From: Minisyncoccota bacterium
GTDB lineage: Bacteria > Patescibacteriota > Minisyncoccia > Phycocordibacterales > UBA5272
Direction of reading: 5' to 3'
DNA length: 39,176 bases
Assembly: GCA_043784805.1 (NCBI GenBank)
Contig: JAYVXX010000111.1
Span: 1 to 39,176, forward strand
Within the stretch, counting starts at the first letter, position 1, and every line of letters begins with the position of its first letter. The translations under genes were made by a program, and so were the position numbers. Under the pieces are notes generated by a model, which was not told the DNA's origin, did no database searches, and saw nothing but the letters and a program-made list of their open reading frames with translations. Below are positions 8,749-39,176 of the stretch, piece after piece.

Positions 8749-9574
8749 AACGAAATTCTATGGTAAATCGTTTTACAGAGCAGCCGGGTTTGGACCCATA
8801 GTTCACCCTATACAGGGGAGAATCCAAGTATTGGGTGGTGCGCCGTCAAGTAGTCTGCAATTACCATCTAGGGCTGGGTTTAATCCTGGCGGACCATACT
8901 TGGAGATAATAAATATATCAGGTGGTAGCCAACCACTTAAAGATGAGTCCGGCACTACTATATTGACAATGGCTAACAACACTATTAGTAGAGTCATGCT
9001 TACTCCTACTAGGTGGTATGCTACGTCAAAGACCATAAATACAGGCAGTGCAGCATCATCGTCTGGTGGTAGGTCCAACCCAATAGGTACGTTAGCAACG
9101 GGAATCACTCCACCTACTACGGGCGCATATACTGATCCGTGTCCGGGTGGTGGCACTATACCGCCACAACCGCCTGTGGTAGATAGATGCACACCCGGTG
9201 TTGGATGTAGGACATTCTATAGGTTGCGATGGATATGGCCAGAGCTTACTGCAACTGGTCCAAATTGGAATGAATTGAACAATACGGTAGCCACGGTGAC
9301 GCGTGATCCTACAGCGATAGCTCCCAACGTAGAGTGGAATGGATGGCAAGTTACTTATGACAGTGCTGGCAACCCGACTCGACACTACTTCCAACTGACT
9401 CCCATACTAGATGTGAGCTTCTGCGTAACGGGCTGGAATATAAACATGTCTAACATAGGTGGATATGTTATTTCGTTTCATGCAACATCAGCTCCTCAAG
9501 GTTGTCCGTTAGTTGGTAGATACGTCAACTACTTTCATGGCACTCCGGCCACAGATTTTATGGATGTATTCTAA
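8738..9574 (+). CDS. Hypothetical tail-module protein (Gly/Pro/Thr/Cys-rich), inserted between the g12-like and g13-like genes
   Basis: A 278-aa ORF with no recognised family. Its N-terminal ~60 aa resemble the C-terminus of the preceding protein. Confidence 0.6.
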   Translation: MLNKTKFYGKSFYRAAGFGPIVHPIQGRIQVLGGAPSSSLQLPSRAGFNPGGPYLEIINISGGSQPLKDESGTTILTMANNTISRVMLTPTRWYATSKTINTGSAASSSGGRSNPIGTLATGITPPTTGAYTDPCPGGGTIPPQPPVVDRCTPGVGCRTFYRLRWIWPELTATGPNWNELNNTVATVTRDPTAIAPNVEWNGWQVTYDSAGNPTRHYFQLTPILDVSFCVTGWNINMSNIGGYVISFHATSAPQGCPLVGRYVNYFHGTPATDFMDVF

Positions 9575-10432
9575 ATGTTAGTTCTAAGTTCCAGCCTAGC
9601 TTCACTGACCCTAGGCAAGACATTCCGGTTTACTTCTTGCTGGACTATCACACGTACTGATGGGTTTACAGTAAGTGTAACTACTCACGATGGTTTACTT
9701 ACTGTACCCATCGCTGGAGTAGATGTAGTATTCAATCCAGTAGGTTCATTTAACCCTACTGCACGGCAGAAGCTGTCTCAGCTCAAGGAGCGTAACCTTG
9801 AAGTCAAAGGGTCATTCGACATTGCTGCCATCACGTTCGCTGACTTGGCAGCAGGCCGATATCGCGGTGCTAAAGTATCTGAATACTTAGTAGATTGGAA
9901 ATACCCATGGGCTGGGCCAATCAACACTACCATATACTTCATCGGCCAAACTAAGTTCAACGGCGAGTATTGGGAAGCTCAGATGGATGGCATCACAACC
10001 TACTTGAAGAAGGAAGTAGGTCGCAACTTTGATCGACATTGTTCAGCAAACTTAGGAGATATAGATTGCACGGTGAATCTAGCTCCATACACATTCTCCG
10101 GCACAGTCGGCACAGTACAAGATGCCAGACAGTCATTCTTTACTAGCTTAACACAAGCTGATAACTACTATAACTTTGGCACACTAGTTATGACTTCTGG
10201 GTTGTGTAATGGGTTGAAGTTTGACATTGAGTATTATGTGAACGCTAATGGCGGCATACAGCTGATGATCCCAGCACCATTTAACCTGGTTACTGGAGAC
10301 ACGTTCAATGCCATCAGGGGATGTGACAGAACGCTACCAACGTGCTTGAATGTATTTAACAACGTACTGAACTTCCGTGGCTTTCCCACTATTCCCGGCA
10401 CTGATATCATGCTGGCATCCGGTAACACATGA
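9575..10432 (+). CDS. DUF2163 / phage BR0599-family distal tail protein (RcGTA g13-like)
   Basis: The C-terminal motif RGCDRTLPTCLNVFNNVLNFRGFPTIPG matches the GCDKT..C...F.N..NFGGFP signature. Synteny agrees. Confidence 0.8.
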   Translation: MLVLSSSLASLTLGKTFRFTSCWTITRTDGFTVSVTTHDGLLTVPIAGVDVVFNPVGSFNPTARQKLSQLKERNLEVKGSFDIAAITFADLAAGRYRGAKVSEYLVDWKYPWAGPINTTIYFIGQTKFNGEYWEAQMDGITTYLKKEVGRNFDRHCSANLGDIDCTVNLAPYTFSGTVGTVQDARQSFFTSLTQADNYYNFGTLVMTSGLCNGLKFDIEYYVNANGGIQLMIPAPFNLVTGDTFNAIRGCDRTLPTCLNVFNNVLNFRGFPTIPGTDIMLASGNT

Positions 10433-13971: not shown

Positions 13972-13988
13972 TAACGAGTAAGAGAATG
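13972..13988 (+). promoter_or_regulatory. Leader/RBS cassette variant TAACGAGTAAGAGAATG
   Basis: A degenerate copy of the conserved early leader, ending in ATG 13986. Confidence 0.4.
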
Positions 13989-14393
13989 AAAAGCCGCAAA
14001 GAAATCAATCAAGGAATGAACTGGATCAGCCAGCACAAACGTCTGGCCATCTACCTGAGGGATGGTCTCTCTTGCTGCTATTGCGGCAAGGGTATCGAGA
14101 GTGAAATCAAGCTTACCCTTGATCACGTAAAGCCATACTCCAAGGGCGGGTCAAACAAAGAGACTAATCTGGTTACTTGCTGCCTCACCTGCAACTCAGC
14201 ACGCGGCAATCGGAGCGTAAAGAAATTCTGTGAAGCAGCCGTGAACTTCTACACCGACAATTCGGTGTCGGCGGTGTCGCTGGAGAAGGAGATCAAATCA
14301 CAACTCAAGAAGTCTTTGGACTTAGTTGAGGCCAAGAAGATCGTGAACCGACGTGGTTCGTGCGCAAAGGCTATAGAGGCAATGGGAGCTTAA
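13986..14393 (+). CDS. HNH endonuclease
   Basis: CCYCG...LTLDHVKPYSKGGSNKETNLVTCCLTCNSARGN gives a zinc-ribbon Cys pair plus the H-N-N catalytic motif. Confidence 0.85.
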   Translation: MKSRKEINQGMNWISQHKRLAIYLRDGLSCCYCGKGIESEIKLTLDHVKPYSKGGSNKETNLVTCCLTCNSARGNRSVKKFCEAAVNFYTDNSVSAVSLEKEIKSQLKKSLDLVEAKKIVNRRGSCAKAIEAMGA

Positions 14394-14394
14394 T

Positions 14395-14640
14395 ATGACG
14401 CAGAAAGACATGGAGCTTATCACAGAGATACTCACCACGGAGCTGGTTTATCCGGCAGGGTTGTATCTGTATCGTTCCGACGGTATGCACTCCGGAGCTG
14501 TCTGGTTCTCCTCATCAGAAGAATTGCTGCCATCCATCCCGGCAATCATATCGGTGATCTCACAAGAGCGTGAGGTGATGATTACTGACAGCGACAATCT
14601 GACACAATTCCATTATTGCGATGGAGAGATACATCGATGA
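14395..14640 (+). CDS. Hypothetical protein (81 aa)
   Basis: ATG lies 2 nt after the upstream stop. ATGA overlap with the downstream gene. Confidence 0.55.
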   Translation: MTQKDMELITEILTTELVYPAGLYLYRSDGMHSGAVWFSSSEELLPSIPAIISVISQEREVMITDSDNLTQFHYCDGEIHR

Positions 14641-15026
14641 GAGATATCTATTTTCTGCTACTAGATCATCGTAGTCTGGCTGAGGTGGATCTAATTGACA
14701 TGACGGCATCAGGCAATATTGGTGAGTATTATATCACCCGTATAATCGTGCCGGAGAGATACCGTGGCCAAGGGTATGCCTCAGCGATGTTCCAGCGAGT
14801 GCTGGATGACGCCGACAGGGAAAACGTCACGCTAGTGCTGAACGTTGTCCCTGATGGTGGATTAGACCACAACCAGCTTTGTTCGTGGTATCGTCGCTGC
14901 GGGTTCAAAATGACGTCGCCAAACACCTACTACCGGAAGCCAAATCATGAGCGCATTTTCAGGAAAGATTTACAAAACGTTCCGCTCACGAGAGCAGGCG
15001 CAGTCGGCACTCACCAGATACCTTGA
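14637..15026 (+). CDS. GNAT-family N-acetyltransferase (small, 129 aa)
   Basis: ATG 14637 forms an ATGA overlap; the track start at 14616 is a TTG. The acetyl-CoA motif A RYRGQGYASAMFQRVL and the C-terminal WYRRCGF are present. Confidence 0.7.
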   Translation: MRDIYFLLLDHRSLAEVDLIDMTASGNIGEYYITRIIVPERYRGQGYASAMFQRVLDDADRENVTLVLNVVPDGGLDHNQLCSWYRRCGFKMTSPNTYYRKPNHERIFRKDLQNVPLTRAGAVGTHQIP

Positions 15027-22269: not shown

Positions 22270-25125
22270 ATGAAATCAGTGCCAATTGAGAACATCAACG
22301 CTCTGGCTGAACTGGAGCGATTGAAATGGGCTTGGAGCGCATCAGGCGATAATGAAGTCAGTATTTGCTGTCCTGTACACAAGGAGACTAATCCATCAGC
22401 GTTATTAAACACTGACAAGAATCTATGGAAATGCCAAGTGCCGTCTTGTAGCGGTAAGGGCGACATAGTGAACCTACTTTGTCATATCACGCTCACAGAT
22501 CGCAACGTGATGCTTGCTGATTTGTCAGAACGTTACGATCTGTATGAGGTCAAAGCTCTTAATCCAAGCATGGTAGAGACACTTCATGAACATATTTGGG
22601 AAGCTGGACCACTACTAAAAGCATTGTACGATCGTGGACTAACTGATGGAGATATTAGACGGGCAAAGCTAGGATTCAACGGAAAGCGTATCACCATACC
22701 AGTCTATGATGAAAAGCGCAATGTAGTGAATGTTCGCAAGTATCTTCCCGGTGCACCTGGCCCAGAGAAGATGATCAACACGTCAGGGTACAGCAAACCT
22801 AGAATATACCAGATTGAAGATGTAGTACAATTTGACAGTGTATGGTTACTAGGTGGTGAGTGTAAAGCTATAGTGGCTCGCAGACTACTTAACCCTCACG
22901 GAATAGGAGCTTGCAGTATTACGGCTGGTGAAGGTTCTTGGGAACATGAATTTGGAAAACTATTCCAAGGAAAGAATGTCTATGTTGCGATGGACGTGGA
23001 TAAGGCTGGGACGTTGGCTGCGAGAAAACTTGCTGAGAAGCTTATATCATTCACCAAGAATGTATACATCATCAACTTACCGCTTGACATTAAAAAATAC
23101 CCCAAGGGTGATATCAACGATTTTGTGGGTAATGAGGGTGCCACGGATAAAGAGTTACTTGCGATTACGCCGATACCGTTCACACGTGTCGTCACGCCTC
23201 AAGAGCAGCACGACCTAGGAGAAGTGAACACCAAGCTACTTCACGCAGCTAGGTCTGAGAACGTAGGTAGGAAGATATGTTTGGAAGCTGTAGTACACGC
23301 AAAGGTAGACCCACCCTACATAGTACCTAAGAACGTAGGTATTGAATGCACTAGAGATCAACCTAACTGTGAATGGTGTCCAGTAATGTCCAAGGAGCCA
23401 GATGATAAGAATGGTCTGACTTGGCTTACGGTGAAGGGCACATCACCCGGTTTGCTACAGATGATCGCCGCACCTATTAAGCAGATGCGAGATGCTATGC
23501 GTGAAGCTTTGGGCGTGCCAGTCTGTAAGGTAGCTGAGTTCACGGTGAAAGACCACCTCGACGTAGTAGATGTCAGGTTGTCTCCGCAAATTACTACAGA
23601 CGGCTCAAACGCAGATCACGTAGTGTTACCAGCCTATATCGTAGACAGGCCGGTGGACATAAACACTCCCTATAAGCTGACAGGCAGAGTATACCCGCAT
23701 CCTAAGAATCAGCAAGCTATTCTCTTGTTAGATGAAGTGACAGTAGCTGCAGATAGTCTGGACTGTTTCGATGATTCAGATATGTCAGAGCTGAAGATTC
23801 TCCAGCCAGTAGAGAATTCACTTGCTGGTATACAGATGAAGCTTGATGAAATCTATTCAGACTATGAAGCTAATGTAACTAATATCTATCAGCGTAGAGA
23901 CTTTCACTTATCGCTTGACCTGATGTATCACTCAGTGCTTTATATGGAGTTTGACGGTAAGCAGCAAAACGGATGGGTAAACGTCATCGCCGTAGGAGAC
24001 TCAGGACAGGGTAAGTCAGAAGCTAGTACAAGAATGAGAGATCACATAGGGTTAGGTGAGAGAGTAGACTGTAAGACCGCCAGCGTTGCTGGCCTACTAG
24101 GTGGTGTGCAAGACCTTAGTGGTCGATGGTTCGTGACATGGGGTGTCATTCCTATGCATGACCGTCGTGCGGTTATCCTTGAAGAAGTGAAGGGCGCATC
24201 GACTGAGACGTTGGGCACACTCACTGATATGCGTAGCTCCGGCAAAGCACAGATCAACAAGATAGCTAAGCATACAGCCTATGCCCGCACCCGGCTGTAT
24301 ATGATGACCAACGCTAGGGGCAAAGCCAAAATGTCTGATCACAACTTTGGTTGTGAAGCTATCTTGGAAGTGATGGGATCACTTGAAGACGTTAGACGGT
24401 TTGATGTCGGTATTATTCTCTCAGAGAATCAGATCAACGCAGCTGACATTAACAAGCTCAAAGAAGATCGACCAACTTGCGAGCATACCTACACTTCAGT
24501 GATAGCTAGAAAAGCTGTGCTATGGGCTTGGACCAGAAAGCGGGATCAAGTAATCATCGACCCAGACGCACAGAAAGAATGTATCTATGCCAGTAACTTA
24601 ATGTTCAGCAAGTTTGATGAGTCTATGCCACTAGTAGACAAGGGTACTATGAAGTACAAACTGGCCAGACTCGCCACAGCTCTGGCAGCAAGGTTATACT
24701 CTACCACAAACGATGGCAAGATGGTAATGGTTAAGAAGTGCCACGTAGAATATGTAGCGGCATGGATTGATCGGATGTACTCTGATAAACACTTTGGCTA
24801 TGTGGACTACTCACGAGCCAAGAGATATCAGGTACAAGTCATTGACCCTAATATAGTGCGTAGAAACTTGCTGGCTACCAAGCACCCGGCAGACTTAGTA
24901 GAGAACATCACTCACGCTACTGAGATCAACATCAATGATGTGATGGATTGGACAGAGACAGACTTTGCCGGTGCCCAACAACTACTATCGTTCCTGGTGC
25001 GCAAGCACGCCTTGTATCGTGTAAAACGATGGTATGTCAAGACGTCAGAATTCATTGAGTTACTAAAGCAGATGAGGATTGAAGGTATACCAACTGAACC
25101 AGAGATTGGAGAAGATAGACTATGA
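22270..25125 (+). CDS. DNA primase (CHC2 zinc finger + TOPRIM) fused to MCM-like AAA+ helicase
   Basis: Zinc finger: CCPVHKETNPS...WKCQVPSCSGKGD. TOPRIM: GGECKAI and YVAMDVDKAG. C-terminal module: Walker A AVGDSGQGKSE, SVAGLLGGV, Walker B-like AVILEEVKG, MMTNARG, and the Arg finger-like VRRFDVGIIL. Start ATG 22270 is preferred because ATG 22249 lies inside the hairpin stem. Confidence 0.85.
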   Translation: MKSVPIENINALAELERLKWAWSASGDNEVSICCPVHKETNPSALLNTDKNLWKCQVPSCSGKGDIVNLLCHITLTDRNVMLADLSERYDLYEVKALNPSMVETLHEHIWEAGPLLKALYDRGLTDGDIRRAKLGFNGKRITIPVYDEKRNVVNVRKYLPGAPGPEKMINTSGYSKPRIYQIEDVVQFDSVWLLGGECKAIVARRLLNPHGIGACSITAGEGSWEHEFGKLFQGKNVYVAMDVDKAGTLAARKLAEKLISFTKNVYIINLPLDIKKYPKGDINDFVGNEGATDKELLAITPIPFTRVVTPQEQHDLGEVNTKLLHAARSENVGRKICLEAVVHAKVDPPYIVPKNVGIECTRDQPNCEWCPVMSKEPDDKNGLTWLTVKGTSPGLLQMIAAPIKQMRDAMREALGVPVCKVAEFTVKDHLDVVDVRLSPQITTDGSNADHVVLPAYIVDRPVDINTPYKLTGRVYPHPKNQQAILLLDEVTVAADSLDCFDDSDMSELKILQPVENSLAGIQMKLDEIYSDYEANVTNIYQRRDFHLSLDLMYHSVLYMEFDGKQQNGWVNVIAVGDSGQGKSEASTRMRDHIGLGERVDCKTASVAGLLGGVQDLSGRWFVTWGVIPMHDRRAVILEEVKGASTETLGTLTDMRSSGKAQINKIAKHTAYARTRLYMMTNARGKAKMSDHNFGCEAILEVMGSLEDVRRFDVGIILSENQINAADINKLKEDRPTCEHTYTSVIARKAVLWAWTRKRDQVIIDPDAQKECIYASNLMFSKFDESMPLVDKGTMKYKLARLATALAARLYSTTNDGKMVMVKKCHVEYVAAWIDRMYSDKHFGYVDYSRAKRYQVQVIDPNIVRRNLLATKHPADLVENITHATEININDVMDWTETDFAGAQQLLSFLVRKHALYRVKRWYVKTSEFIELLKQMRIEGIPTEPEIGEDRL

Positions 25126-25586
25126 AACAAGTAAGAGACTTTCACAAGAAGTATGGTCTGCCGGTAGATGAAAACCTGCACGACCACAGTGGTATAGATA
25201 CTACACACTCTTTGAAGCTTCTGGCGGCAGAGATTCATACTATCACAGAAGATAGTTTGGAGAGAGCAGTAAGTACACGCAATGGTGGCGACCACCGATT
25301 GTGGCGTATGCATCTGTTACTAGGCGAAGTTGCGGAGATGGCCCAGAGCTTAGCAGATCGCAACGAGATAGAACTTGCTGACGCTCTGGGCGACTTGGAC
25401 TATGTAGTCAAGGGTACAGCGGTGACGTATAACATACCCTTAGACTATGTAGCGACAGAGATACACAAAAGCAATATGACCAAGCAACTATGTCTCCGTC
25501 CCAAAGGCCCAGACTACGTTCCGCCGGACATAGAAGGAGCTATAAAGAAGGGCAGAGAGTTAGCGGGGGGTGGGAAGCATGAGTAA
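25122..25586 (+). CDS. MazG-like (all-alpha) nucleoside triphosphate pyrophosphohydrolase
   Basis: LLLGEVAEMAQSL...ELADALGDLDYVVKGTA...IHKSNMTK shows the EExxE...ExxD metal-binding helix pattern of the MazG/dimeric dUTPase superfamily. Confidence 0.75.
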   Translation: MKQVRDFHKKYGLPVDENLHDHSGIDTTHSLKLLAAEIHTITEDSLERAVSTRNGGDHRLWRMHLLLGEVAEMAQSLADRNEIELADALGDLDYVVKGTAVTYNIPLDYVATEIHKSNMTKQLCLRPKGPDYVPPDIEGAIKKGRELAGGGKHE

Positions 25587-25752: not shown

Positions 25753-26613
25753 ATGAACCTAGCTCAACGCATTCTCTATGAAGGTCTGTGTAGGCCGAAC
25801 AATGTGAATCCTCACTTCAAGCTGGAGCTTGATGAGATGGTGAAGCTACTACCTATACAGATAGTGTCAGTGCCTCATTTTGAGACACCTAGGATTCTGG
25901 CTCAGTCTTACAGTGATCTGGAGGGAATTAAGAAGTTAGCCATCTATCATCTATACCCAGCCTACTGGATGGAAAATTCTACCAAAGGTACTCTGATATA
26001 TGACGGCAAGACTTTCGACAATGAAACTATCTACTCAGGAGCTTTGTTCCTATGGGAGAAGGGTATACCTACTATATTTAACATAGTAGCCCACCGATTT
26101 GAGAAACCTAAGATCATAGCTGCTTGGTTGCCGAGCAGTGACCCGCACGACAAGTTTGGCGTCTACACTATCTCTGACCTCACTAGCCGGTCAGCCTATG
26201 ATGCCAACGGAGATATACAGAAGATTATACAGCAAGCTACTATTTCAATGAATACGCTCTGGCCTATGTTTGCTGCACACAACCTACTACGCTGCTCGAA
26301 CATCACCGTCACCGATACTGAGATATCTCCTGATAGAGTTAAGCGGGCACGCCGTCTTACTACAGAGCCAACTCTAATCTACAAGACGTTAGTAGTTAGG
26401 GTGCCCAAAGAGCAAGCTAAAGCTTATGGCAGAGAGTGGGTGAACTTTGATGAGATGCCTATACACTCTGTACGCGGTCACTTCAAGAAGTACACAGTAG
26501 AGAAACCACTGTTTGGTAAATATATCGGTGAGTTCTTCTGTCCGCCCTTTGTGAAAGGTACTCCGGACAACGGCACTATATCCAAGGATTACAAACTCGA
26601 TGGGAACAAGTAA
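25753..26613 (+). CDS. Hypothetical protein (286 aa)
   Basis: ATG preceded by AGGAG at 25743-25747. By eye it is more AT-rich than its neighbours. No family recognised. Confidence 0.6.
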   Translation: MNLAQRILYEGLCRPNNVNPHFKLELDEMVKLLPIQIVSVPHFETPRILAQSYSDLEGIKKLAIYHLYPAYWMENSTKGTLIYDGKTFDNETIYSGALFLWEKGIPTIFNIVAHRFEKPKIIAAWLPSSDPHDKFGVYTISDLTSRSAYDANGDIQKIIQQATISMNTLWPMFAAHNLLRCSNITVTDTEISPDRVKRARRLTTEPTLIYKTLVVRVPKEQAKAYGREWVNFDEMPIHSVRGHFKKYTVEKPLFGKYIGEFFCPPFVKGTPDNGTISKDYKLDGNK

Positions 26614-26863
26614 CAGAATATACATCGTAGTAGATTCACCACCCGGCTACAAAGTAAGTAGGAGATACACAAAAGAAGTTATGTTACAGTATCTAACTCT
26701 CGATGGACACTGGACAGAGACTGGAGACATATTCACTAACGTGTCTCAGCTACAAGGAATGAAAGTCAAGGACTATAACTCTACGGCTGTTGTCTTTAGA
26801 GCATTGACCAAGAAACTACTCTCATTGAGGAAGAAACATGATCTCAGCATTCGACACGATTGA
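26600..26863 (+). CDS. Hypothetical protein (87 aa)
   Basis: An ATG ORF overlapping both neighbouring genes. Confidence 0.45.
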   Translation: MGTSNRIYIVVDSPPGYKVSRRYTKEVMLQYLTLDGHWTETGDIFTNVSQLQGMKVKDYNSTAVVFRALTKKLLSLRKKHDLSIRHD

Positions 26864-27815
26864 CGAACTATGGCTCTATGCGGCTGACCTTATTTTCAAG
26901 TATGGTCACGACTGTCCGTCACGTGACGGAGCTAGTAGGGAGATAATGGGCTTTGCGGCAAGGCTAAACAACCCCATGGCTCACTTCCTGTTTAACCCTG
27001 TGCGTAAACTTAACCCAGCGTACGCTGCGGCAGAGATGATCTGGTATCTGTCCGGCGATCAGAACATTGACAGGATACTACCATATGCCAAACAGTATGA
27101 GCGATTCGCCAACGATGGTATAGCTCACGGAGCTTATGGCTACCGATGGAAGAAGGACAGAAATTTTCTAGCAGAGAAGGAATACACCGGTATACCCAGC
27201 AAGTCTCAGTTAGAAGCTATTATAGACTTGCTGGCGGTGAAGCAGGCTACTAGACAGGCAGTGATGACGATGTGGAATGCTGGAGACTTACTACACGCTA
27301 TTGTGGGAGACTACAAAGACCTGCCCTGTACTTTAAGCTTAAACTTTCTGGTCAGGGCCAACAAGCTCTATATGACCACCACGATGCGCTCCAACGACAT
27401 ATGGCTTGGACTACCATATGATATCTTCTGCTTCACTAGCTTACAGATTATCATAGCTTCAGCTCTGAACCTAGGCTTGGGGTGGTATCAGCACCAAGCT
27501 ATGTCGATGCATATCTATGACCGTAACATTGAGAAGTGTAGGCTTGCTGTCAACCCGCCAGAGTTTAAGTGCGGGCCGATGGATTATAGTCTGGAATCTA
27601 CCGGAGCTAGTATCTTCCAACGTATCAGATCACTAGTACAGACAGAAGAACATAACCAACGTTTTGCCACTGTGAGCAAAGTAGCTAACTTGGGAGGGGA
27701 GTTTTCCCTGTTCGAGAATTTATCTTGTATGGCAGCCTATCGTTGGTGCCCAGATAGAGCTTATGAGAGAGTGAGTACAAAACTTTTACAGGAGTACATG
27801 CATGTTAATTCTTGA
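26838..27815 (+). CDS. Thymidylate-synthase-fold pyrimidine C5 transferase with dCMP-type specificity residue (dCMP hydroxymethylase/methylase-like)
   Basis: Core ThyA motifs are present: AYGYRW, RQAVMTMWN, DLPCTLSLNFLV (Cys164, nt 27327-27329), TMRSNDIWLGLPYDIFCF and MHIYDRN. Asp195 (GAT 27420-27422) occupies the position of ThyA Asn177, as does Asp179 in T4 gp42. Confidence 0.8.
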   Translation: MISAFDTIDELWLYAADLIFKYGHDCPSRDGASREIMGFAARLNNPMAHFLFNPVRKLNPAYAAAEMIWYLSGDQNIDRILPYAKQYERFANDGIAHGAYGYRWKKDRNFLAEKEYTGIPSKSQLEAIIDLLAVKQATRQAVMTMWNAGDLLHAIVGDYKDLPCTLSLNFLVRANKLYMTTTMRSNDIWLGLPYDIFCFTSLQIIIASALNLGLGWYQHQAMSMHIYDRNIEKCRLAVNPPEFKCGPMDYSLESTGASIFQRIRSLVQTEEHNQRFATVSKVANLGGEFSLFENLSCMAAYRWCPDRAYERVSTKLLQEYMHVNS

Positions 27816-28329
27816 AGGAGCTGGTAGACTAGGTAAGTCTACCGCAGCGTCACGGTTAAACGAGTTGGCTATACAACGTGGATGGACGTGGGTACAGAAA
27901 AGAAAAATGAACAAACCTGGTCCAGACTTTGACTGGAGATATCAGAATCTCATCGAGCCAGAGATTATCCAAGATAGATTTCATCTAGGTGGGTTGGCCT
28001 ACCATCATCAAGATGAGACACAGCTTGATGAGATCAGAGTACAGATAATCAACAGCTGGATTCACGCGACTGGTGGTATAATCGTCTTGTTTTACACTGA
28101 TAACATGGCGTTCTATGGCAAACAGTTTTCCGCTTTCCGCCACGAGAATAAGCCAGACAATATGGATCACTACATCCTACAACAATCAGCAAACTATAAA
28201 TTCACTGACATGCAGAGATATGCTGATCATGTAGTAAGAGTGAACAGTGTCGATGACTTCCCTACTGACGACACGTTAAACTTCTGGCTCGATGAATGGG
28301 CCATCCGCCGTGGCTTCGCACTGGAGTAA
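27802..28329 (+). CDS. P-loop deoxynucleoside monophosphate kinase (thymidylate kinase-like)
   Basis: Walker A is LEGAGRLGKST. QDRFHLGGLAY resembles the TMK DRY..S..AY motif. The gene sits between the ThyA-fold and deaminase genes. Confidence 0.65.
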   Translation: MLILEGAGRLGKSTAASRLNELAIQRGWTWVQKRKMNKPGPDFDWRYQNLIEPEIIQDRFHLGGLAYHHQDETQLDEIRVQIINSWIHATGGIIVLFYTDNMAFYGKQFSAFRHENKPDNMDHYILQQSANYKFTDMQRYADHVVRVNSVDDFPTDDTLNFWLDEWAIRRGFALE

Positions 28330-28332
28330 TTT

Positions 28333-28869
28333 ATGTACACAGAAATAGCTAGTAGTATCTTACAAACCATGGACTCTGCACAGAAGTACGCAGCAAGCAG
28401 AGTAACCTGTAAGCGTAAAGCTGTCGGCTGCGCAGCGGTGAGGATAGTAGGTGGCTTCTTAGATAAAACTCGATATACTTACAACGGACCAAGTATATCG
28501 AGAAGTGTCTGTACAAACATAGTAGGTAACTGTGGGTGCTCTCACGCAGAGCCACGGATGGTCATGAAGCTACTTCATGACGGATACGCAGGCGGGAAGA
28601 AGTTTGTCCTGCTGTGCGAGTATTCGCCATGTACTAATTGCGCGAACATTATACTGGACTCCAACCTGTTTCACGGAATCATATATCACAAGCTAACAGA
28701 GCACGATGTAAGGGGCAGAGACTACTTACTGCAAGCATGGCCGCTAGGTGTACTCACTACTGACCAGCTAGTAGCTTACATCAACGATAGTAGGTATGAG
28801 GGTATCACCTTAGCTACTAAGGTGGTAGTGTCTTCTGTGCGAGATTCTTTTGATCACTGGTCACTATGA
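28333..28869 (+). CDS. dCMP/cytidine deaminase-family zinc enzyme
   Basis: The zinc-binding motifs CSHAEPRMV (H-A-E) and SPCTNCANIIL (PCxxC) are present. Confidence 0.85.
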   Translation: MYTEIASSILQTMDSAQKYAASRVTCKRKAVGCAAVRIVGGFLDKTRYTYNGPSISRSVCTNIVGNCGCSHAEPRMVMKLLHDGYAGGKKFVLLCEYSPCTNCANIILDSNLFHGIIYHKLTEHDVRGRDYLLQAWPLGVLTTDQLVAYINDSRYEGITLATKVVVSSVRDSFDHWSL

Positions 28870-30857
28870 TAAATCCTAACTACAAATTAGTAACTAACAG
28901 CACTCAACTACCTAACGTGGCTGGGTGCGAGCACCTATTCTTAGACGTTGAGACATGTATTATGTCTGATGTCAAGAAGTGGGCAGGCTTGTACCCATTT
29001 AAGGGAGACAGAATTGCTGGCATAGCTCTCAAAACTTCCGACAGTCCAACGTGTTGGTATGTGCCGGTGAGACACAAGAATTATAACAACGTGGACTTCT
29101 CAGCGTATCAGAAGTGGCTCACGGAAATTATGTCTAAACGGGACGGGTGGTGGATCAATCATAACATCCTAATAGACATGGCTTTTGTGGCTCACGATGG
29201 TGTACCTATCCACCGTCAAGTAATAGATACTCTCACTACTGTGAAGCTACTAGACACTGACCGCATGAAATATGGGTTAAAACCTTACTGCAAGGAAGTG
29301 CTGGGCTTGCCGATGGCTGAGGAGCTAGGGATTAAAGCTGCTCTGAAAATTATCAAGTCTAAAAGCTACGGCGATGTACATCCTAACATAATGGGAGAAT
29401 ATGCTTGTAATGACGTGTTCGCCAACGAAATACTTCACCAGCACATAGAGTCTACTTTGCCGGAGCAGGTGCGAGGAGTGTATAAGACAGAGATACTACT
29501 AACTCCCATACTTCACGATATGGAGTTGGTAGGCCAGCAAGTAGTTAAGCAGGAGCTTATCCTAGATAAGCTTGCTGGCATCCGGCTACTCATAGAGCTG
29601 AGCTCAAAGTTGGCAGAGCTAACTAACAGAGAGTTCACTAACAGCTCTATATGTATCAGGGACATTTTCTGTAATATCCTGGGTCTACCTGTCTTGCTGA
29701 CCATTACTAAAAGAGATTCACTCACAGGTAGATACATAGATACTGGCAGGCCGTGTTTTGATAAGAAAGCTCTGGCACTATATGAAGTACATCCGCAGGT
29801 GACTGGGAATAAGACTAACAACAAGATAGTCCAGATGATCATGGCCTATCGTAAGGAGTCACAGCACCAGTCTCTGTTTGTTAATAGCTTCCTAGAGCTT
29901 ATGGATAGCTCAGAGCGTATTCATACTACCTACACGCAGCTAGTAAGGACAGGCCGGATGTCAGCCAAACGTCCCAATGGTCAGCAGAACACTAAACGCA
30001 GCAAGAGACTTATCAAGCCACGTAAGGGCAGATGCTTTATATCCTGCGATTATTCACAGATTGAGTTCAGGCTTATCGTTCACTATATCCGCGATCAAGA
30101 CGCCATCATGGCGTATCATGAGAATCCAAAGACAGATTTCCATGAATGGGTGGCGAACATGTGTCACATGGATCGATCCGCCGGCAAGACTATGAATTTC
30201 AGAATCGGGTTTGGTGCTGGTAAGTTCAACGTAGAAGCTGCTCTTGCTACAGATAAGAGTGTGGCGGCGGAAGTGTCTAAAGAAGTGGAAAAGATGGGCA
30301 TTGCTGACGACCAGAAAAACAGGATGTTCCATCAGCTATGTAAGGACAGGGCGGCAGCGTTGTATCATAAGTATCATGAGACTCTGCCCGGTATTAAGAA
30401 GACATCTGCGGAGGCAGAAGCAGTGTGTAAACGTCGTGGGTTTGTGTTTAACAATCACGGCAGACGGAGACACTTACCACCGAAAGCAGCAAGAAAAGCA
30501 TTTAATAACCTGTGCCAAGGTGACGCGATGGATATCATTAAGGAGCGTATGGTGGCGATATCACACCTATATAACAAGAAGATGCGCGACTGGGACATTA
30601 GAATTGCTGCTAACGTCCACGATGAGATTCTCTTTGATGCGCCTGAAGAGCTAATGCTAAACACGGAAGTCCACGACTATATATTGTCTGTGCTCCAGAC
30701 GCCTGACGTGAAATACTCCGTGCCGATTATCGCTGGACTGGGCGTATCTAAGAATAATTGGGGTGAGGCCAGCGGCGATCTGTCCGTGCTGGAGGACGGG
30801 TCGAAAGTTAAAACCGTACCTGACGGAGCTAAAATTTTGGCCGGAAAACTGCGCTAA
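28866..30857 (+). CDS. Family A DNA polymerase with 3'-5' exonuclease domain
   Basis: Exo I is FLDVET, Exo II HNILIDM and Exo III YACNDV. Pol motif A is DYSQIEFRL, motif B RSAGKTMNFRIGFGAG and motif C NVHDEILF. Confidence 0.95.
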   Translation: MINPNYKLVTNSTQLPNVAGCEHLFLDVETCIMSDVKKWAGLYPFKGDRIAGIALKTSDSPTCWYVPVRHKNYNNVDFSAYQKWLTEIMSKRDGWWINHNILIDMAFVAHDGVPIHRQVIDTLTTVKLLDTDRMKYGLKPYCKEVLGLPMAEELGIKAALKIIKSKSYGDVHPNIMGEYACNDVFANEILHQHIESTLPEQVRGVYKTEILLTPILHDMELVGQQVVKQELILDKLAGIRLLIELSSKLAELTNREFTNSSICIRDIFCNILGLPVLLTITKRDSLTGRYIDTGRPCFDKKALALYEVHPQVTGNKTNNKIVQMIMAYRKESQHQSLFVNSFLELMDSSERIHTTYTQLVRTGRMSAKRPNGQQNTKRSKRLIKPRKGRCFISCDYSQIEFRLIVHYIRDQDAIMAYHENPKTDFHEWVANMCHMDRSAGKTMNFRIGFGAGKFNVEAALATDKSVAAEVSKEVEKMGIADDQKNRMFHQLCKDRAAALYHKYHETLPGIKKTSAEAEAVCKRRGFVFNNHGRRRHLPPKAARKAFNNLCQGDAMDIIKERMVAISHLYNKKMRDWDIRIAANVHDEILFDAPEELMLNTEVHDYILSVLQTPDVKYSVPIIAGLGVSKNNWGEASGDLSVLEDGSKVKTVPDGAKILAGKLR

Positions 30858-35221: not shown

Positions 35222-35544
35222 TTGAATGCACCTTTATTCACACAGGCCAAACGTATTTCTTTGCCACACTACATGGCAAGTTTGCGCACACTGAGGAAGT
35301 AGATGGTGGGCCAATTATCTCTGCCGGCCCACATCAAGTCTACTTGAAGAATACTACCATCACACTGGAGAAAGCTCTGAAGGATGGGCTGGTGGTTAAG
35401 ATGGGTGATGGAAGATTGGAGGATTGCCGGTCAACAAAGAAGATGCCGGAGAAAATCACAATCTTACTCCAGAATCTTGCTGATGCCTATAAGGATATTG
35501 AGGACTATCTCACAGACCCAGAGCGATGGGATGGGATGTCATGA
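35218..35544 (+). CDS. Hypothetical protein (108 aa)
   Basis: ATG 35218 forms an ATGA overlap with the ligase stop. The track start at 35197 is a TTG. Confidence 0.55.
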   Translation: MIECTFIHTGQTYFFATLHGKFAHTEEVDGGPIISAGPHQVYLKNTTITLEKALKDGLVVKMGDGRLEDCRSTKKMPEKITILLQNLADAYKDIEDYLTDPERWDGMS

Positions 35545-36374
35545 GAGATAACTATGTTCACGGCTCTGCTAGTATCCAGCAATTCTTTAACTGGATCAAC
35601 GAGAGGCAGGCTATATGGTGGCGTAGGAGTAAAGGTCACCCAAAGCCATGGACTACTGACCCGGTGATGCTGGACTATAAGTTCACTAACTGTTTCAGAG
35701 AATTAGACGCTGGTACAGTGGCTCTGAGACTTATGGAGTGTGGTCACATAGATAAGCCACTACTTATCTGGAACGCATGGTGGTATAGGTTGTTCAACTG
35801 GCATGAACACGCTACCAAACTAGGGTTTATATTTCACTACAATACCCTTGAAGAGTACATGCTGGACCTACATAAGCGTGACGGGAGAATCTTCACCGGT
35901 GCCCACATGGTACGTGGGTTAAATGGTGAACGTAAAGTGTTCTCATATCTACGTCTGGCCAAGCAACTCTATGAAGAGCGTGACGCTATATACCAGCAAG
36001 TTAAGCTTGCTGGCACCATAGAAGGTGCCTACAACGTCTGTCTAGGTTACTATCTGATGGGTGACTTCACTAGCTATGAAGTAGCCTGCGATATGCGCTG
36101 GACGGTGCTTAGGGATGCTCCAGACAAGCTTACGTGGGCTAACCCAGGCAACGGAGCTATACGTGGGTTAAAACGTCTAGGGTTATCTCCTACGTTGGCA
36201 GGAATGATACAGATCTTTGAGATGAAGGATTACTATCTTGCTTATTGGGTCAAGAACGCACCGGTGCCTTTTGAACTTAGAGAGATTGAACATAGTCTCT
36301 GTGAGTTTGACAAATATGAGCGGGTCAGGACTGGCCAAGGCAGACCACGTTCCAAGTACAATGGGAGGATATAA
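35541..36374 (+). CDS. Helical enzyme resembling the 5-hmdU DNA hypermodification family (5-hmdU DNA kinase helical domain / aGPT-pyrophosphorylase-like)
   Basis: ATG 35541 forms an ATGA overlap; an alternative ATG is at 35526. The N-terminal signature W..ERQAIWWRRSKGHPKPWTTDPVMLDYKFTNCFRELDAGT matches the recalled pattern ER..I...R..G.P.PWT.DPIL..YRF.N.YRE.D..T. FTGAHMV and MGDFTSYEVACDMRW are also present. The assignment is from memory, not from a search. Confidence 0.55.
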   Translation: MRDNYVHGSASIQQFFNWINERQAIWWRRSKGHPKPWTTDPVMLDYKFTNCFRELDAGTVALRLMECGHIDKPLLIWNAWWYRLFNWHEHATKLGFIFHYNTLEEYMLDLHKRDGRIFTGAHMVRGLNGERKVFSYLRLAKQLYEERDAIYQQVKLAGTIEGAYNVCLGYYLMGDFTSYEVACDMRWTVLRDAPDKLTWANPGNGAIRGLKRLGLSPTLAGMIQIFEMKDYYLAYWVKNAPVPFELREIEHSLCEFDKYERVRTGQGRPRSKYNGRI

Positions 36375-37857: not shown

Positions 37858-38277
37858 ATGAAAATCTACATTGCAGCGTCGTTTACTCAGAGAGACTATG
37901 AAGCTGCTGACATGAAGAACTGCTTGCTGGCAGCCGGTCACGAAGTAACTAGCCGATGGCTGGACCCGCTACACCAGAAACACAACAGCTATGGTATGGA
38001 GGACAAGTTTGCCGCTATGGACCTTACCGATATCCGGCGGTCTGAAGCTATGGTCATCATCACGGAGGGTGACGGCAAGCAGACTACTAAAGGTGGCAGG
38101 CACACAGAACTAGGTATAGCTCTGGAGCGTCACATACCTATCTTCTTGTATGGTCCCAAGGAGCAGGTGTTTCACAACCTGCTGAGTATCCAGCAAGTTA
38201 TTACTACAAGTCGGTTGATATTCGAGTTGGCCAAACACAGTAAGACTGCTTCAGGCAGCGTTGAAAGCTCTGGCTGA
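37858..38277 (+). CDS. Nucleoside 2-deoxyribosyltransferase / dNMP N-glycosidase (DNPH1/Rcl)-like protein
   Basis: MKIYIAASF..., ...DLTDIRRSEAMVII..., and GGRHTELGIALERHIPIFLY match the fold pattern MKIYxAGP...D...I..sD.vv....s.Gt..E.G.A...gkPv. The SD is AAGGAG at 37847-37852. Confidence 0.55.
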   Translation: MKIYIAASFTQRDYEAADMKNCLLAAGHEVTSRWLDPLHQKHNSYGMEDKFAAMDLTDIRRSEAMVIITEGDGKQTTKGGRHTELGIALERHIPIFLYGPKEQVFHNLLSIQQVITTSRLIFELAKHSKTASGSVESSG

Positions 38278-38385: not shown

Positions 38386-39029
38386 ATGAATGATATTATT
38401 TGCGGTGATTGTGTAGAGAAAACTAAAAACATTTCAGACTCTAGTATAGACATGGTTTTATTCAGTCCACCGTATGACAAAATAAGGGACTACAACGGAT
38501 TTGAAATCGACATGAAATCATTGGGAGCAGAGTACTGAAAGATGGAGGTGTATGTGTAATAGCGGACGGAACTAAGAATTTTGCTAAAAGTCTGACTACT
38601 TGTCGTATAACTTTGGGTCGGGTTTCAACTGTTTGAACATCTGATTTATAGCAAACACGGTAGACCTGGTGCTTGGTGGAACCAACGATTCAGAGTAGAC
38701 CATGAATCAATCCTTGTATTCTTCAAGGGTGCCAGACCAAAATTTTTGATAAGCAACATTTATCGGTACCATCAAAAACTGCAGGTAGAGGCTGGCACTA
38801 CTCAACATCAAACTCTGAAGGCAACTGGTTGAAGTTAAAACATCCGGCTACATTTCCAGATAAGTTAGCTGAAGACTTGATCAAATGTTTTACTCAGGAA
38901 GGTGAAACAGTCCTTGATCCAACCACTTTAGTCAAGGCTAAACAATGTAAAAGGAATTACATCGGCATAGACTCATCTACCTATTACACTGAAATATGTA
39001 AACATCGTTTAGACTTGGAGACAAGATGA
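38386..39029 (+). pseudogene. Decayed N6/N4 DNA methyltransferase (N6_N4_Mtase family): at least 3 frameshifts plus loss of the FxGxG AdoMet motif
   Basis: Homology is split over four frames. Fragment 38386-38538 reads MNDIICGDC...DMVLFSPPY then stop. Fragment 38535-38636 reads LKDGGVCVIADGTKNF... then stop. Fragment 38611-38832 reads GFQLFEHLIYSKHGRPGAWWNQRFRVDHESILVFFKGARPKF. Fragment 38706-39029 reads ...KLKHPATFPDKLAEDLIKCFTQEGETVLDP--TTLVKAKQCKRNYIGID. The third shift lies in the A4T5 run at 38739-38747. By eye the region is more AT-rich than its flanks. Confidence 0.75.
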
Positions 39030-39176
39030 AAATCTTAGACATTCGCGGCACAAACGGATCAGGCAAGAGTTCTGTAGTAACCTTGCTGGCAAAGGGTGCA
39101 GGCAGGGCGGTGTCCCAGACACCGTGCGGGATGCCATATACTATACTTGCGACGGAGAAACACGGTCTGATAGCAG
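39026..39176 (+). CDS. P-loop NTPase/kinase, N-terminal 50 codons (3' end outside the window)
   Basis: ATG 39026 forms an ATGA overlap with the methyltransferase remnant stop. Walker A is GTNGSGKSS. The frame is open to the window end. Confidence 0.6.
   Translation, partial: MKILDIRGTNGSGKSSVVTLLAKGAGRAVSQTPCGMPYTILATEKHGLIA

Follow-up and report, generated by a model that had tools for sequence, protein, structure and literature searches.

A predicted dCMP hydroxymethylase of an uncultured siphophage shares its contig with a thymidine hypermodification kit

Thymidine hypermodification of phage DNA takes place after replication and is carried out by a core kit composed of a 5-hydroxymethyldeoxyuridine (5-hmdU) DNA kinase (5-HMUDK) and an amino-acid:DNA transferase (AADT); every characterised kit works on 5-hmdU that originates from a deoxyuridine monophosphate (dUMP) hydroxymethylase (PMC5889632, PMC8989533). 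Among homologs of thymidylate synthase (TS), the base that is accepted depends on the residue found at position 177 of Escherichia coli ThyA. An Asp at this position selects cytosine, as established by mutagenesis of T4 gp42 and of the TS enzymes of E. coli and L. casei (PMC6400193, PMC8670742), and in metaviromes Asp177 tracks cytosine-modified DNA (PMC8670742). Here, we describe an open reading frame (ORF) for such an Asp-type homolog, located at 26838-27815 on the plus strand of contig JAYVXX010000111.1 (assembly GCA_043784805.1, assigned to a Minisyncoccota bacterium), whose 39,176 nucleotides are referred to below as the window. A Logan contig from SRR23617254 (locus L087, 53.4 kb) is identical to the window over their overlap, and the genes of a thymidine hypermodification kit are found on the same contig as the ORF. 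The product of the ORF is probably a hydroxymethylase of deoxycytidine monophosphate (dCMP), which would convert dCMP, methylene-tetrahydrofolate (CH2-THF), and water into 5-hydroxymethyl-dCMP (5hm-dCMP) and tetrahydrofolate (THF).

The ORF starts with an ATG at 26838, with a GAGGA ribosome-binding site 7-8 nucleotides 5′ of it, and encodes a protein of 325 residues. This protein matches PF00303 (Thymidylat_synt) over residues 17-242 with E=1.1e-26, above the Pfam gathering score, and it also matches four PHROG 'thymidylate synthase' families. In addition, an AlphaFold2 model (pLDDT 95.8, pTM 0.94; 38 family sequences as input) matches more than 390 TS-family chains in the PDB at E<=1e-3 in Foldseek. 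Judged by sequence and model together, the protein is a member of the PF00303 superfamily with a ThyA-type fold. The initial annotation, made by eye, had proposed six blocks of alignment with ThyA, and all six are reproduced when the protein and its relatives are aligned with MAFFT to the actual sequences of E. coli ThyA and T4 gp42. The catalytic cysteine is Cys164 (27327-27329), and the alignment places Glu66, Arg29, Arg139, Arg184, Ser185, His225, and Tyr227 among the further key residues. Conservation was counted over 237 family proteins retrieved by two database searches. Cys164, Glu66, Arg29, Arg139, Arg184, His225, and Tyr227, all aligned with residues of the TS superfamily, are each at least 97% conserved; for instance, Cys164 is present in 236 members and Arg139 in 234, while Ser185 is present in 236. 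The codons of Cys164 and of the three diagnostic aspartates discussed below were checked individually.

Asp195 (GAT, 27420-27422) occupies the position of ThyA Asn177 and gp42 Asp179, as had been claimed from inspection: GLPYD195 lies over GLPFN177 of ThyA and GFRND179 of gp42. It is Asp in all 237 family members and also in 80 of 80 IMG/VR relatives, where the other diagnostic residues show the same pattern. This residue indicates a cytosine substrate. The neighboring motif blocks point in the same direction, since 'DLPCT' and 'MRSND' agree with 'DFMCT' and 'MRSND' of gp42 and not with 'PCH' and 'QRSCD' of ThyA. The earlier description of the motifs PCT and MRSND as gp42-like thus holds against the real sequences, which have 'MCT' and 'MRSND' in gp42.

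The product is expected to depend on another position, three residues before the catalytic cysteine (Cys-3). An acidic residue at this position (Asp145 in gp42, where ThyA has Leu143) activates water and leads to a hydroxymethyl product (PMC6400193, PMC13326640), and the D145N variant of gp42 yields no 5hm-dCMP (PMC6400193). In the window, Cys-3 is Asp161 (27318-27320; 'KDLPC164'), which is Asp in 227 of the 237 family proteins and Glu in one more. This residue, which the initial annotation had not used, indicates a hydroxymethyl and not a methyl product, in agreement with its view that the active site is nearer to that of a dCMP hydroxymethylase than to that of a thymidylate synthase. From these positions we infer both the substrate and the product.

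It has been reported that five of seven tested Asp177-type TS homologs adjoining a deaminase and a PRA-PH gene are 5-methyl-dCMP (5mdCMP) synthases (bioRxiv 10.1101/2024.12.05.627091), and the window enzyme might by analogy be a dCMP methyltransferase of the XP12 type that makes 5-methyl-dCMP, with the neighboring deaminase turning 5-methyl-dC nucleotides into those of thymidine. A control for this case is provided by the XP12-like phage FMYAK-P1, whose TS homolog combines an Asp at position 177 with an Asn at Cys-3 ('KNVPCP'). The gene of this homolog is followed by a deaminase and then by a dihydrofolate reductase (DHFR) gene, as expected of a methylase that produces dihydrofolate (DHF). In contrast, the window enzyme has Asp161 at Cys-3, carries the gp42-like motifs 'PCT/RSND' and not 'PCP/RSSD', lacks the ThyA-like C-terminal tail that closes the active site for hydride transfer, and has a hydroxymethylase, MilA, as its closest solved relative. 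Moreover, no DHFR gene follows it: none was found among the scanned ORFs of the window (22-31 kb and 31-38 kb) or among the annotated downstream genes on L087. Finally, the modification kit of the contig requires a hydroxymethyl group. A methylase was consequently rejected on the grounds of Asp161 and of the DHFR gene not found in the scanned regions, and we consider it very improbable.

Two further candidates were discarded on the basis of individual residues. The 5-hydroxy-dCMP synthases of the RB69 gp48 and DLP3 gp80 type are diagnosed by an Asn in place of ThyA Asp169 (D169N; PMC13326640). The window retains Asp187 (27396-27398) at this site, as do all 237 family members, which rules out a synthase of this type. 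In MilA, the preference for ribose is determined by Lys133 and Ala176, and a K133R/A176S double mutant prefers dCMP (PMC5175136, PMC6400193). The corresponding residues in the window are Arg139 and Ser185, which indicate deoxyribose rather than ribose and led to the rejection of an enzyme acting on ribo-CMP.

Going by these residues, the protein would be a homodimer that hydroxymethylates C5 of the pyrimidine in dCMP with the help of a folate cofactor. Cys164 would attack C6 of the base, Asp195 would hydrogen-bond with and protonate cytosine N3/N4 so that dCMP is chosen over dUMP, and Glu66 would participate in the activation of 5,10-methylene-THF. Upon departure of THF, a water molecule activated by Asp161 would add to the exocyclic methylene, giving 5-hydroxymethyl-dCMP and THF with no methyl group or DHF being formed. 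The 2′-deoxyribose would be accommodated by Arg139 and Ser185, together with His225 and Tyr227.

The C-terminal part of the protein sets it apart from both ThyA and gp42. After the H-x-Y motif there are 98 residues, compared with 55 in ThyA and 28 in gp42. An extension of 60-80 residues relative to either enzyme had been noted at first; with respect to gp42 this figure stands (about 70 residues), but with respect to ThyA the difference is only about 43 residues, and the tail of ThyA is a different structure. In the model, residues ~240-325 (27555-27812) form a helical domain with helices at 259-276, 291-300, 305-311, and 315-324. Although no Pfam model covers this region, the statement that it belongs to no recognised family has to be withdrawn, as structure superposition and the family profile match it to the five-helix domain at the C-terminus of MilA. 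In effect, MilA is the best sequence match in the PDB (phmmer E=5e-24; family profile E=5.6e-51), and the profile alignment runs through residue 279 (MilA residue 272), thus taking in E270..R274, which together with 'MAAxKW' constitutes the conserved motifs of the domain. Foldseek superposes the model on MilA chains over 329-335 columns with TM scores of 0.79-0.80, compared with about 0.6 for ThyA structures. At least 70 residues follow Tyr227 in 233 of the 237 family members, and E270 is present in 215. In MilA, the domain is remote from the active site and its removal results in insoluble protein (PMC5175136); the C-terminal ~85 residues of the window enzyme would likewise fold into a helical domain resembling that of MilA and set apart from the active site, with a role that is probably structural. 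Predicted viral structures of the same full-length build also exist for cultured phages, such as Maribacter phage Colly_1 (TM 0.84), and proteins with the MilA-type domain are the rule in a large phage family, for which 538 clusters at 50% identity were counted (E<=1e-30). There is also a second, short Asp-type subfamily in IMG/VR loci L057-L082, with proteins of 223-237 residues that have no C-terminal domain and carry Ser at the position of gp42 Ser94. No MazG, kinase, or deaminase neighbors were detected beside it with the window's proteins as queries, and by their sequences these proteins look like conventional gp42-like enzymes.

The gene is part of a plus-strand operon with overlapping stops and starts, which comprises a primase-helicase, a MazG-like protein, two ORFs, the predicted hydroxymethylase, a P-loop kinase, a deaminase, and DNA polymerase I. 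We propose that this is a translationally coupled cassette in which the hydroxymethylase performs the first step. The MazG/PRA-PH-like nucleotide pyrophosphohydrolase (25122-25586; PF01503, E=4.8e-8; phrog_671, E=9e-20) is predicted to deplete canonical deoxynucleoside triphosphates (dNTPs). The start of the kinase gene (27802-28329) overlaps the stop of the TS homolog, and its product of 175 residues is a P-loop deoxynucleoside monophosphate (dNMP) kinase of thymidylate-kinase/YorR-like type, as assigned by a family profile. As a single sequence this protein has no match in Pfam, PHROG, NCBIfam, or the PDB, but a profile of 20 of its P-loop relatives matches the SPbeta YorR structure (2axp/3kb2) with E=1.3e-11 and thymidylate kinases with E~1e-5. 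The same type of dNMP kinase adjoins the TS homologs of RB69 and DLP3 (PMC13326640). The possibility that the P-loop protein is itself the 5-hmdU DNA kinase was discarded, as it has no similarity to PaMx11 gp49 and the actual kinase begins at 39026. The following gene (28333-28869) encodes a zinc deaminase of the dCMP-deaminase family, with 178 residues and intact HAE and PCxxC motifs (PF00383, E=2.5e-6), whose best PDB match, a weak one (E=0.02), is the dCMP deaminase of cyanophage S-TIM5 (4p9c). The last gene of the cassette (28866-30857) encodes a family A DNA polymerase, recognised by Pfam DNA_pol_A on the identical contig and by tblastn to PaMx11 gp55 (E=2e-29).

Relatives keep the gene order MazG, TS, kinase, deaminase, PolA: the MazG-like gene is directly 5′ of the TS homolog in most of them, the kinase gene is directly 3′, and the deaminase follows the kinase. 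Phage TS homologs of Asp177 type accompanied by a deaminase, PRA-PH/MazG, and DNA polymerase A are a class that has already been described (PMC8670742; bioRxiv 10.1101/2024.12.05.627091). Many deaminases of this genomic class prefer 5mdCTP or 5hmdCTP; for one of them, conversion of 5hmdCTP to 5hmdUTP has been observed in vitro, and several cause 5hmdU to appear in the DNA of E. coli cells that also express T4 gp42 and gp1 (bioRxiv 10.1101/2024.12.05.627091). The two ORFs between MazG and the TS homolog encode 286 residues (25753-26613), of which only the C-terminal half matches phrog_20769, a family of unknown function, and 87 residues (26600-26863). Neither has a homolog in any of the 80 related loci, in which MazG and the TS gene are direct neighbors, and the pair looks like a lineage-specific insertion. 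In one relative, a 67-kb contig of NCBI assembly GCA_044343465.1 (L090), it is a PF00145 C5 cytosine DNA methyltransferase (8782-9990) that lies between MazG and the Asp-type hydroxymethylase, an odd gene for a phage that is predicted to replace or modify cytosine at C5.

The thymidine hypermodification kit begins within the window and continues on L087, with its PF18748 and PF18724 genes 11-12 kb downstream of the TS homolog. The 5-hmdU DNA kinase is cut by the end of the window, which holds the first 50 codons for this protein of 185 residues (39026-39176, plus strand). The ORF starting at 39026 translates to 'MKILDIRGTNGSGKSS...', and the complete kinase, a PF18748 member, is found at L087:13486-14043 and is 28% identical to PaMx11 gp49 (E=1e-13). 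The AADT (formerly aGPT-Pplase2; PF18724 ADDT) lies 3′ of the kinase at L087:14260-15117, and a ribonucleotide reductase gene follows them both. With 22% identity to PaMx11 gp46, the AADT retains its D24, W146, K150, E243, T244, and C247, and the AADTs of the Asp-type contigs retain the glycine-binding D24, W146, and K150, the catalytic Cys247, and the pair Glu243-Thr244. E243 and T244 are known to be essential and to hold a metal that coordinates the O4 carbonyl of the flipped uracil base, while the characterised 5-HMUDK acts on 5-hydroxymethyluracil and rejects 5-hydroxymethylcytosine (5hmC). The phosphate pocket of the AADT on L087, on the other hand, carries the changes Y47F, Y51C, and E92Q.

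A third component, a 282-residue protein of the HMUDK_hel family (35526-36374, plus strand; PF18723, E=1.7e-39), is a homolog of PaMx11 gp50 (34% identity, E=1e-34) and belongs to a family that is the hallmark companion of enzymes modifying 5-hydroxymethylpyrimidines in DNA. Pfam labels HMUDK_hel as the helical domain of the kinase; in the window it is a free-standing protein with the invariant motif 'E-I-E-H-S-L-C-E-F-D-K'. In an hhalign comparison with AADT (probability 68%), 'EIEHSLC' falls over the catalytic 'E-V-E-T-I-L-C', which contains the metal-binding Glu/Thr and the nucleophilic Cys; the shared pattern is 'E-x-E-[TH]-x-L-C'. Going by this alignment, HMUDK_hel may not be an accessory of the kinase but a paralogous enzyme in its own right, with C5-modified pyrimidines in DNA as its substrates. 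Its counterpart in phage M6 may be gp55, an equivalence assumed from gene order, and M6 gp55 was dispensable in the published in vitro reconstitution.

The presence of the 5-hmdU kinase, of an AADT with an intact uracil-O4 metal site, and of HMUDK_hel in the same genome leads us to infer a deamination route, and it also means that the final DNA base is probably not simply 5hmC. Part or all of the pool of 5-hydroxymethyldeoxycytidine (5hm-dC) nucleotides would be converted by the adjacent deaminase into 5-hydroxymethyldeoxyuridine (5hm-dU) nucleotides that feed the kit, a proposal to which we assign slightly less than an even chance. The 5hm-dU would then enter DNA and be converted there to amino-acid-substituted thymine, and 5hmC may enter DNA as well. 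In this lineage, dCMP hydroxymethylase, dNMP kinase, and deaminase would together have taken over from the usual dUMP hydroxymethylase, so that cytosine is the base that gets hydroxymethylated and one enzyme feeds both a substitution of 5hmC for C and amino-acid-substituted thymine; we advance this, too, tentatively, as somewhat short of an even bet.

Alternatively, the DNA kinase and AADT could act directly on 5hmC in DNA and produce an amino-acid-hypermodified cytosine, with the deaminase only supplying dUMP in the manner of T4 Cd. The hydroxymethylase is, after all, Asp-type in every member of the lineage, no second, Asn-type TS was seen within the inspected regions of kit-bearing contigs, and both the kinase (28% identity) and the AADT (22% identity, with the pocket changes noted above) are divergent from the characterised enzymes. 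Nevertheless, the AADT keeps the metal-holding Glu243-Thr244, which coordinates uracil O4 and for which the N4 amino group of cytosine could not substitute as a ligand; the characterised 5-HMUDK does not take 5hmC; and sister phages combine homologous kinase/AADT and glycosyltransferase modules with Asn-type enzymes, so that a common substrate base is more economical. An action of the kit on 5hmC is thus unlikely, although it would be the first amino-acid-hypermodified cytosine. The deamination route is favored for these same reasons and because deaminases of this genomic class have been shown to perform the chemistry it needs. If it is correct, it would be a second pre-replicative entry into thymidine hypermodification, one whose substrate would be out of reach of the host thymidylate synthase, and it would offer new 5hm-dC-nucleotide deaminases and DNA kinases as possible reagents for epigenetic sequencing.

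The residue at position 177 splits phages with the same downstream kit into an Asn-type and an Asp-type group. Co-occurrence was examined in 80 IMG/VR loci anchored on HMUDK_hel homologs. An Asn-type TS accompanies a TAGT-like glycosyltransferase in 44 loci and the DNA kinase, with or without AADT, in 5, whereas an Asp-type TS is found with the glycosyltransferase in 11 loci (10 of which also have the deaminase, kinase, and MazG of this cassette) and with the DNA kinase in 2. Further kinase/AADT loci are located on contigs that have an Asp-type TS beyond the flank (L008/L108, L009/L095, L019/L093, and L089/L091), and in total the kinase is present on at least six independent Asp-type contigs, of which four have the AADT as well. 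Among the cultured phages checked, none was found to pair an Asp-type enzyme with the kinase kit; the closest GenBank record, MW202657 (41% identity, annotated as 'pyrimidine hmase'), is Asp-type and has no kit in the 16.7 kb examined.

The glycosyltransferase takes the place of the DNA kinase in 57 of the 80 HMUDK_hel loci (within L093-L171). Of these 57, 44 have a hydroxymethylase of the Asn (dUMP) type, as does the locus of marine phage PhiJL001 (gp19, gp22, and gp24; L085:12271-16120), and they predict a widespread, uncharacterised glycosylated 5-hydroxymethyluracil in phage DNA.

This distribution bears on whether the window enzyme could use dUMP, or both dUMP and dCMP, despite Asp195. 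It would then be the ordinary dUMP hydroxymethylase of a thymidine-hypermodifying phage, with the deaminase supplying dUMP from dCMP in the usual manner of that pathway. The association of 5-HMUDK, AADT, and HMUDK_hel is indeed the one described for dUMP hydroxymethylases, and the enzyme has in common with PaMx11 gp51 the motif 'HGAYGYRW' and a long helical C-terminus. By contrast, not one of the 237 diverse members lacks the Asp, and the PaMx11-type clade has Asn without exception, as seen in 52 IMG/VR loci; so clean a split argues for a functional difference. The mutational work on gp42, E. coli TS, and L. casei TS, in which Asp strongly favors dCMP (PMC6400193, PMC8670742), and the tracking of cytosine-modified DNA by Asp177 (PMC8670742) also speak for dCMP. 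A dUMP-using enzyme is, therefore, decidedly unlikely.

Several observations weigh against the proposed enzyme and pathway. In the active site, gp42 Ser94, which is the water-positioning partner of Asp145, is replaced by Gly98 (235 of 237 members), with Tyr100 present, and the second phosphate-binding Arg contributed by the partner subunit (ThyA Arg127) is replaced by Gln140 (27255-27257). The match of the deaminase to PF00383 is weak, and proximity to a dCMP hydroxymethylase does not oblige a deaminase to use 5hm-dC nucleotides, as is illustrated by T4 Cd, which provides dUMP for the synthesis of dTMP. A second TS or a ThyX could lie in the ~7 kb of the 53.4-kb contig that fall outside the inspected part. 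The cultured phages with the kit, namely PaMx11, PhiJL001, Sonora, and RHph_TM26, all have Asn at position 177, and as the kit is known only with Asn-type hydroxymethylases, either the Asp rule or the assumed substrate of the kit could fail here.

With regard to the first of these points, PaMx11 gp51, which shares 'HGAYGYRW' and whose dUMP hydroxymethylase activity is deduced from the 5-NmdU of PaMx11 DNA, has Gly at the same position, so a water-positioning pair of the Ser/Thr-x-Tyr type appears not to be universal among hydroxymethylases. Gln140 is shared by 226 of the 237 family proteins, with Arg retained in a minority subclade and in every reference enzyme.

The window belongs to an uncultured siphophage with tail genes of the PhiJL001/gene-transfer-agent type. 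In megablast, the 9 kb around the gene had no match among 50,697 phage records, and the phage is known only from metagenomes. A GNAT acetyltransferase (14616-15026) and an HNH endonuclease (13986-14393) are located between the tail and replication modules. An acetyltransferase is used by PaMx11 in thymidine hypermodification, but the GNAT protein of the window has no detectable similarity to it. At 37858-38277 there is a nucleoside 2-deoxyribosyltransferase-like protein, just under the threshold for PF05014, with homologs on an Asp-type contig (L092) and in the Asn-type Rhizobium phage RHph_TM26, where it appears as 'DUF4406' right after the TS gene (30% identity). MilB and DNPH1, which hydrolyse hydroxymethyl-CMP and hydroxymethyl-dUMP, are presumably of the same superfamily, and a role in the pruning of nucleotide pools is possible for the window protein. 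Finally, positions 38386-39000 contain remnants of an N6/N4-type DNA methyltransferase ('SPPY', 'LKDGGVCVI', 'DHESILVF', 'HPATFPDKL', and 'VLDP') that span two reading frames with at least three frameshifts and are left uncalled by the public gene call on the identical contig; they represent either a decaying gene or an assembly error.

Compared with the described systems, the literature search retrieved no report that pairs aGPT-Pplase/5-HMUDK with a dCMP hydroxymethylase or with 5hmdCMP deamination. The pairing of the cassette with the thymidine hypermodification kit is thus unreported in the literature found, and it would represent a novel form of the pathway if deamination is confirmed. 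The enzymes closest in terms of partners are the dUMP hydroxymethylases (PaMx11 gp51, M6, and PhiJL001 gp24; PMC5889632, PMC8989533), which are ~30% identical and share the Asp at Cys-3, 'HGAYGYRW', and the long helical C-terminus, and which are likewise accompanied by HMUDK_hel, 5-HMUDK, and AADT or a TAGT-like glycosyltransferase. They differ in having Asn ('GAxGAN') at the specificity position and 'PCN' where the window has 'PCT', and the deaminase of their phages is of a different subfamily and is not adjacent. The default annotation of TS homologs beside 5-HMUDK as 'dUMP hydroxymethylase' is probably wrong for this lineage.

The cassette itself resembles that of the MetaGPA Asp177-type homologs and mSCD-B5 deaminases (PMC8670742; bioRxiv 10.1101/2024.12.05.627091), with which it has in common Asp177 and the set of PRA-PH, TS, PF00383 deaminase, and DNA_pol_A genes. 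Nevertheless, the characterised cases of that class are mostly 5-methyl-dCMP synthases of XP12/PaMx74-like phages, and no link to 5-HMUDK/AADT has been reported there.

With T4 gp42 (EC 2.1.2.8; PDB 1B5E; ternary complex in PMC6400193), the enzyme shares the 'xCT' motif at the catalytic Cys, 'MRSND', the pairs D179/D195, D145/D161, and Glu60/Glu66, the His/Tyr for the 3′-OH, and the predicted reaction, and T4 also encodes a dNTP pyrophosphohydrolase, a dNMP kinase, and a dCMP deaminase. In contrast, identity is only ~22%, gp42 has no C-terminal domain, Ser94 of gp42 corresponds to Gly98, and the 'RR' phosphate pair of gp42 is 'RQ' here; furthermore, the product of T4 stays 5hmC and gets glucosylated. 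MilA, the CMP 5-hydroxymethylase of mildiomycin biosynthesis in Streptomyces (PDB 5B6D/5B6E/5JNH), has the same architecture, including the C-terminal helical domain and its E..R motif, and Asp at both diagnostic positions. It differs in its preference for ribo-CMP through Lys133/Ala176 (here Arg139/Ser185), in sequence (26% identity), and in setting, which is a bacterial antibiotic gene cluster for MilA and a phage DNA-precursor cassette for the window enzyme. Taken alone, the enzyme adds one sequence to the recognised class of Asp177-type phage hydroxymethylases: its type is already known, the predicted chemistry being that of gp42 and the scaffold that of MilA, and cassettes like its own have been described for phage enzymes with Asp177.

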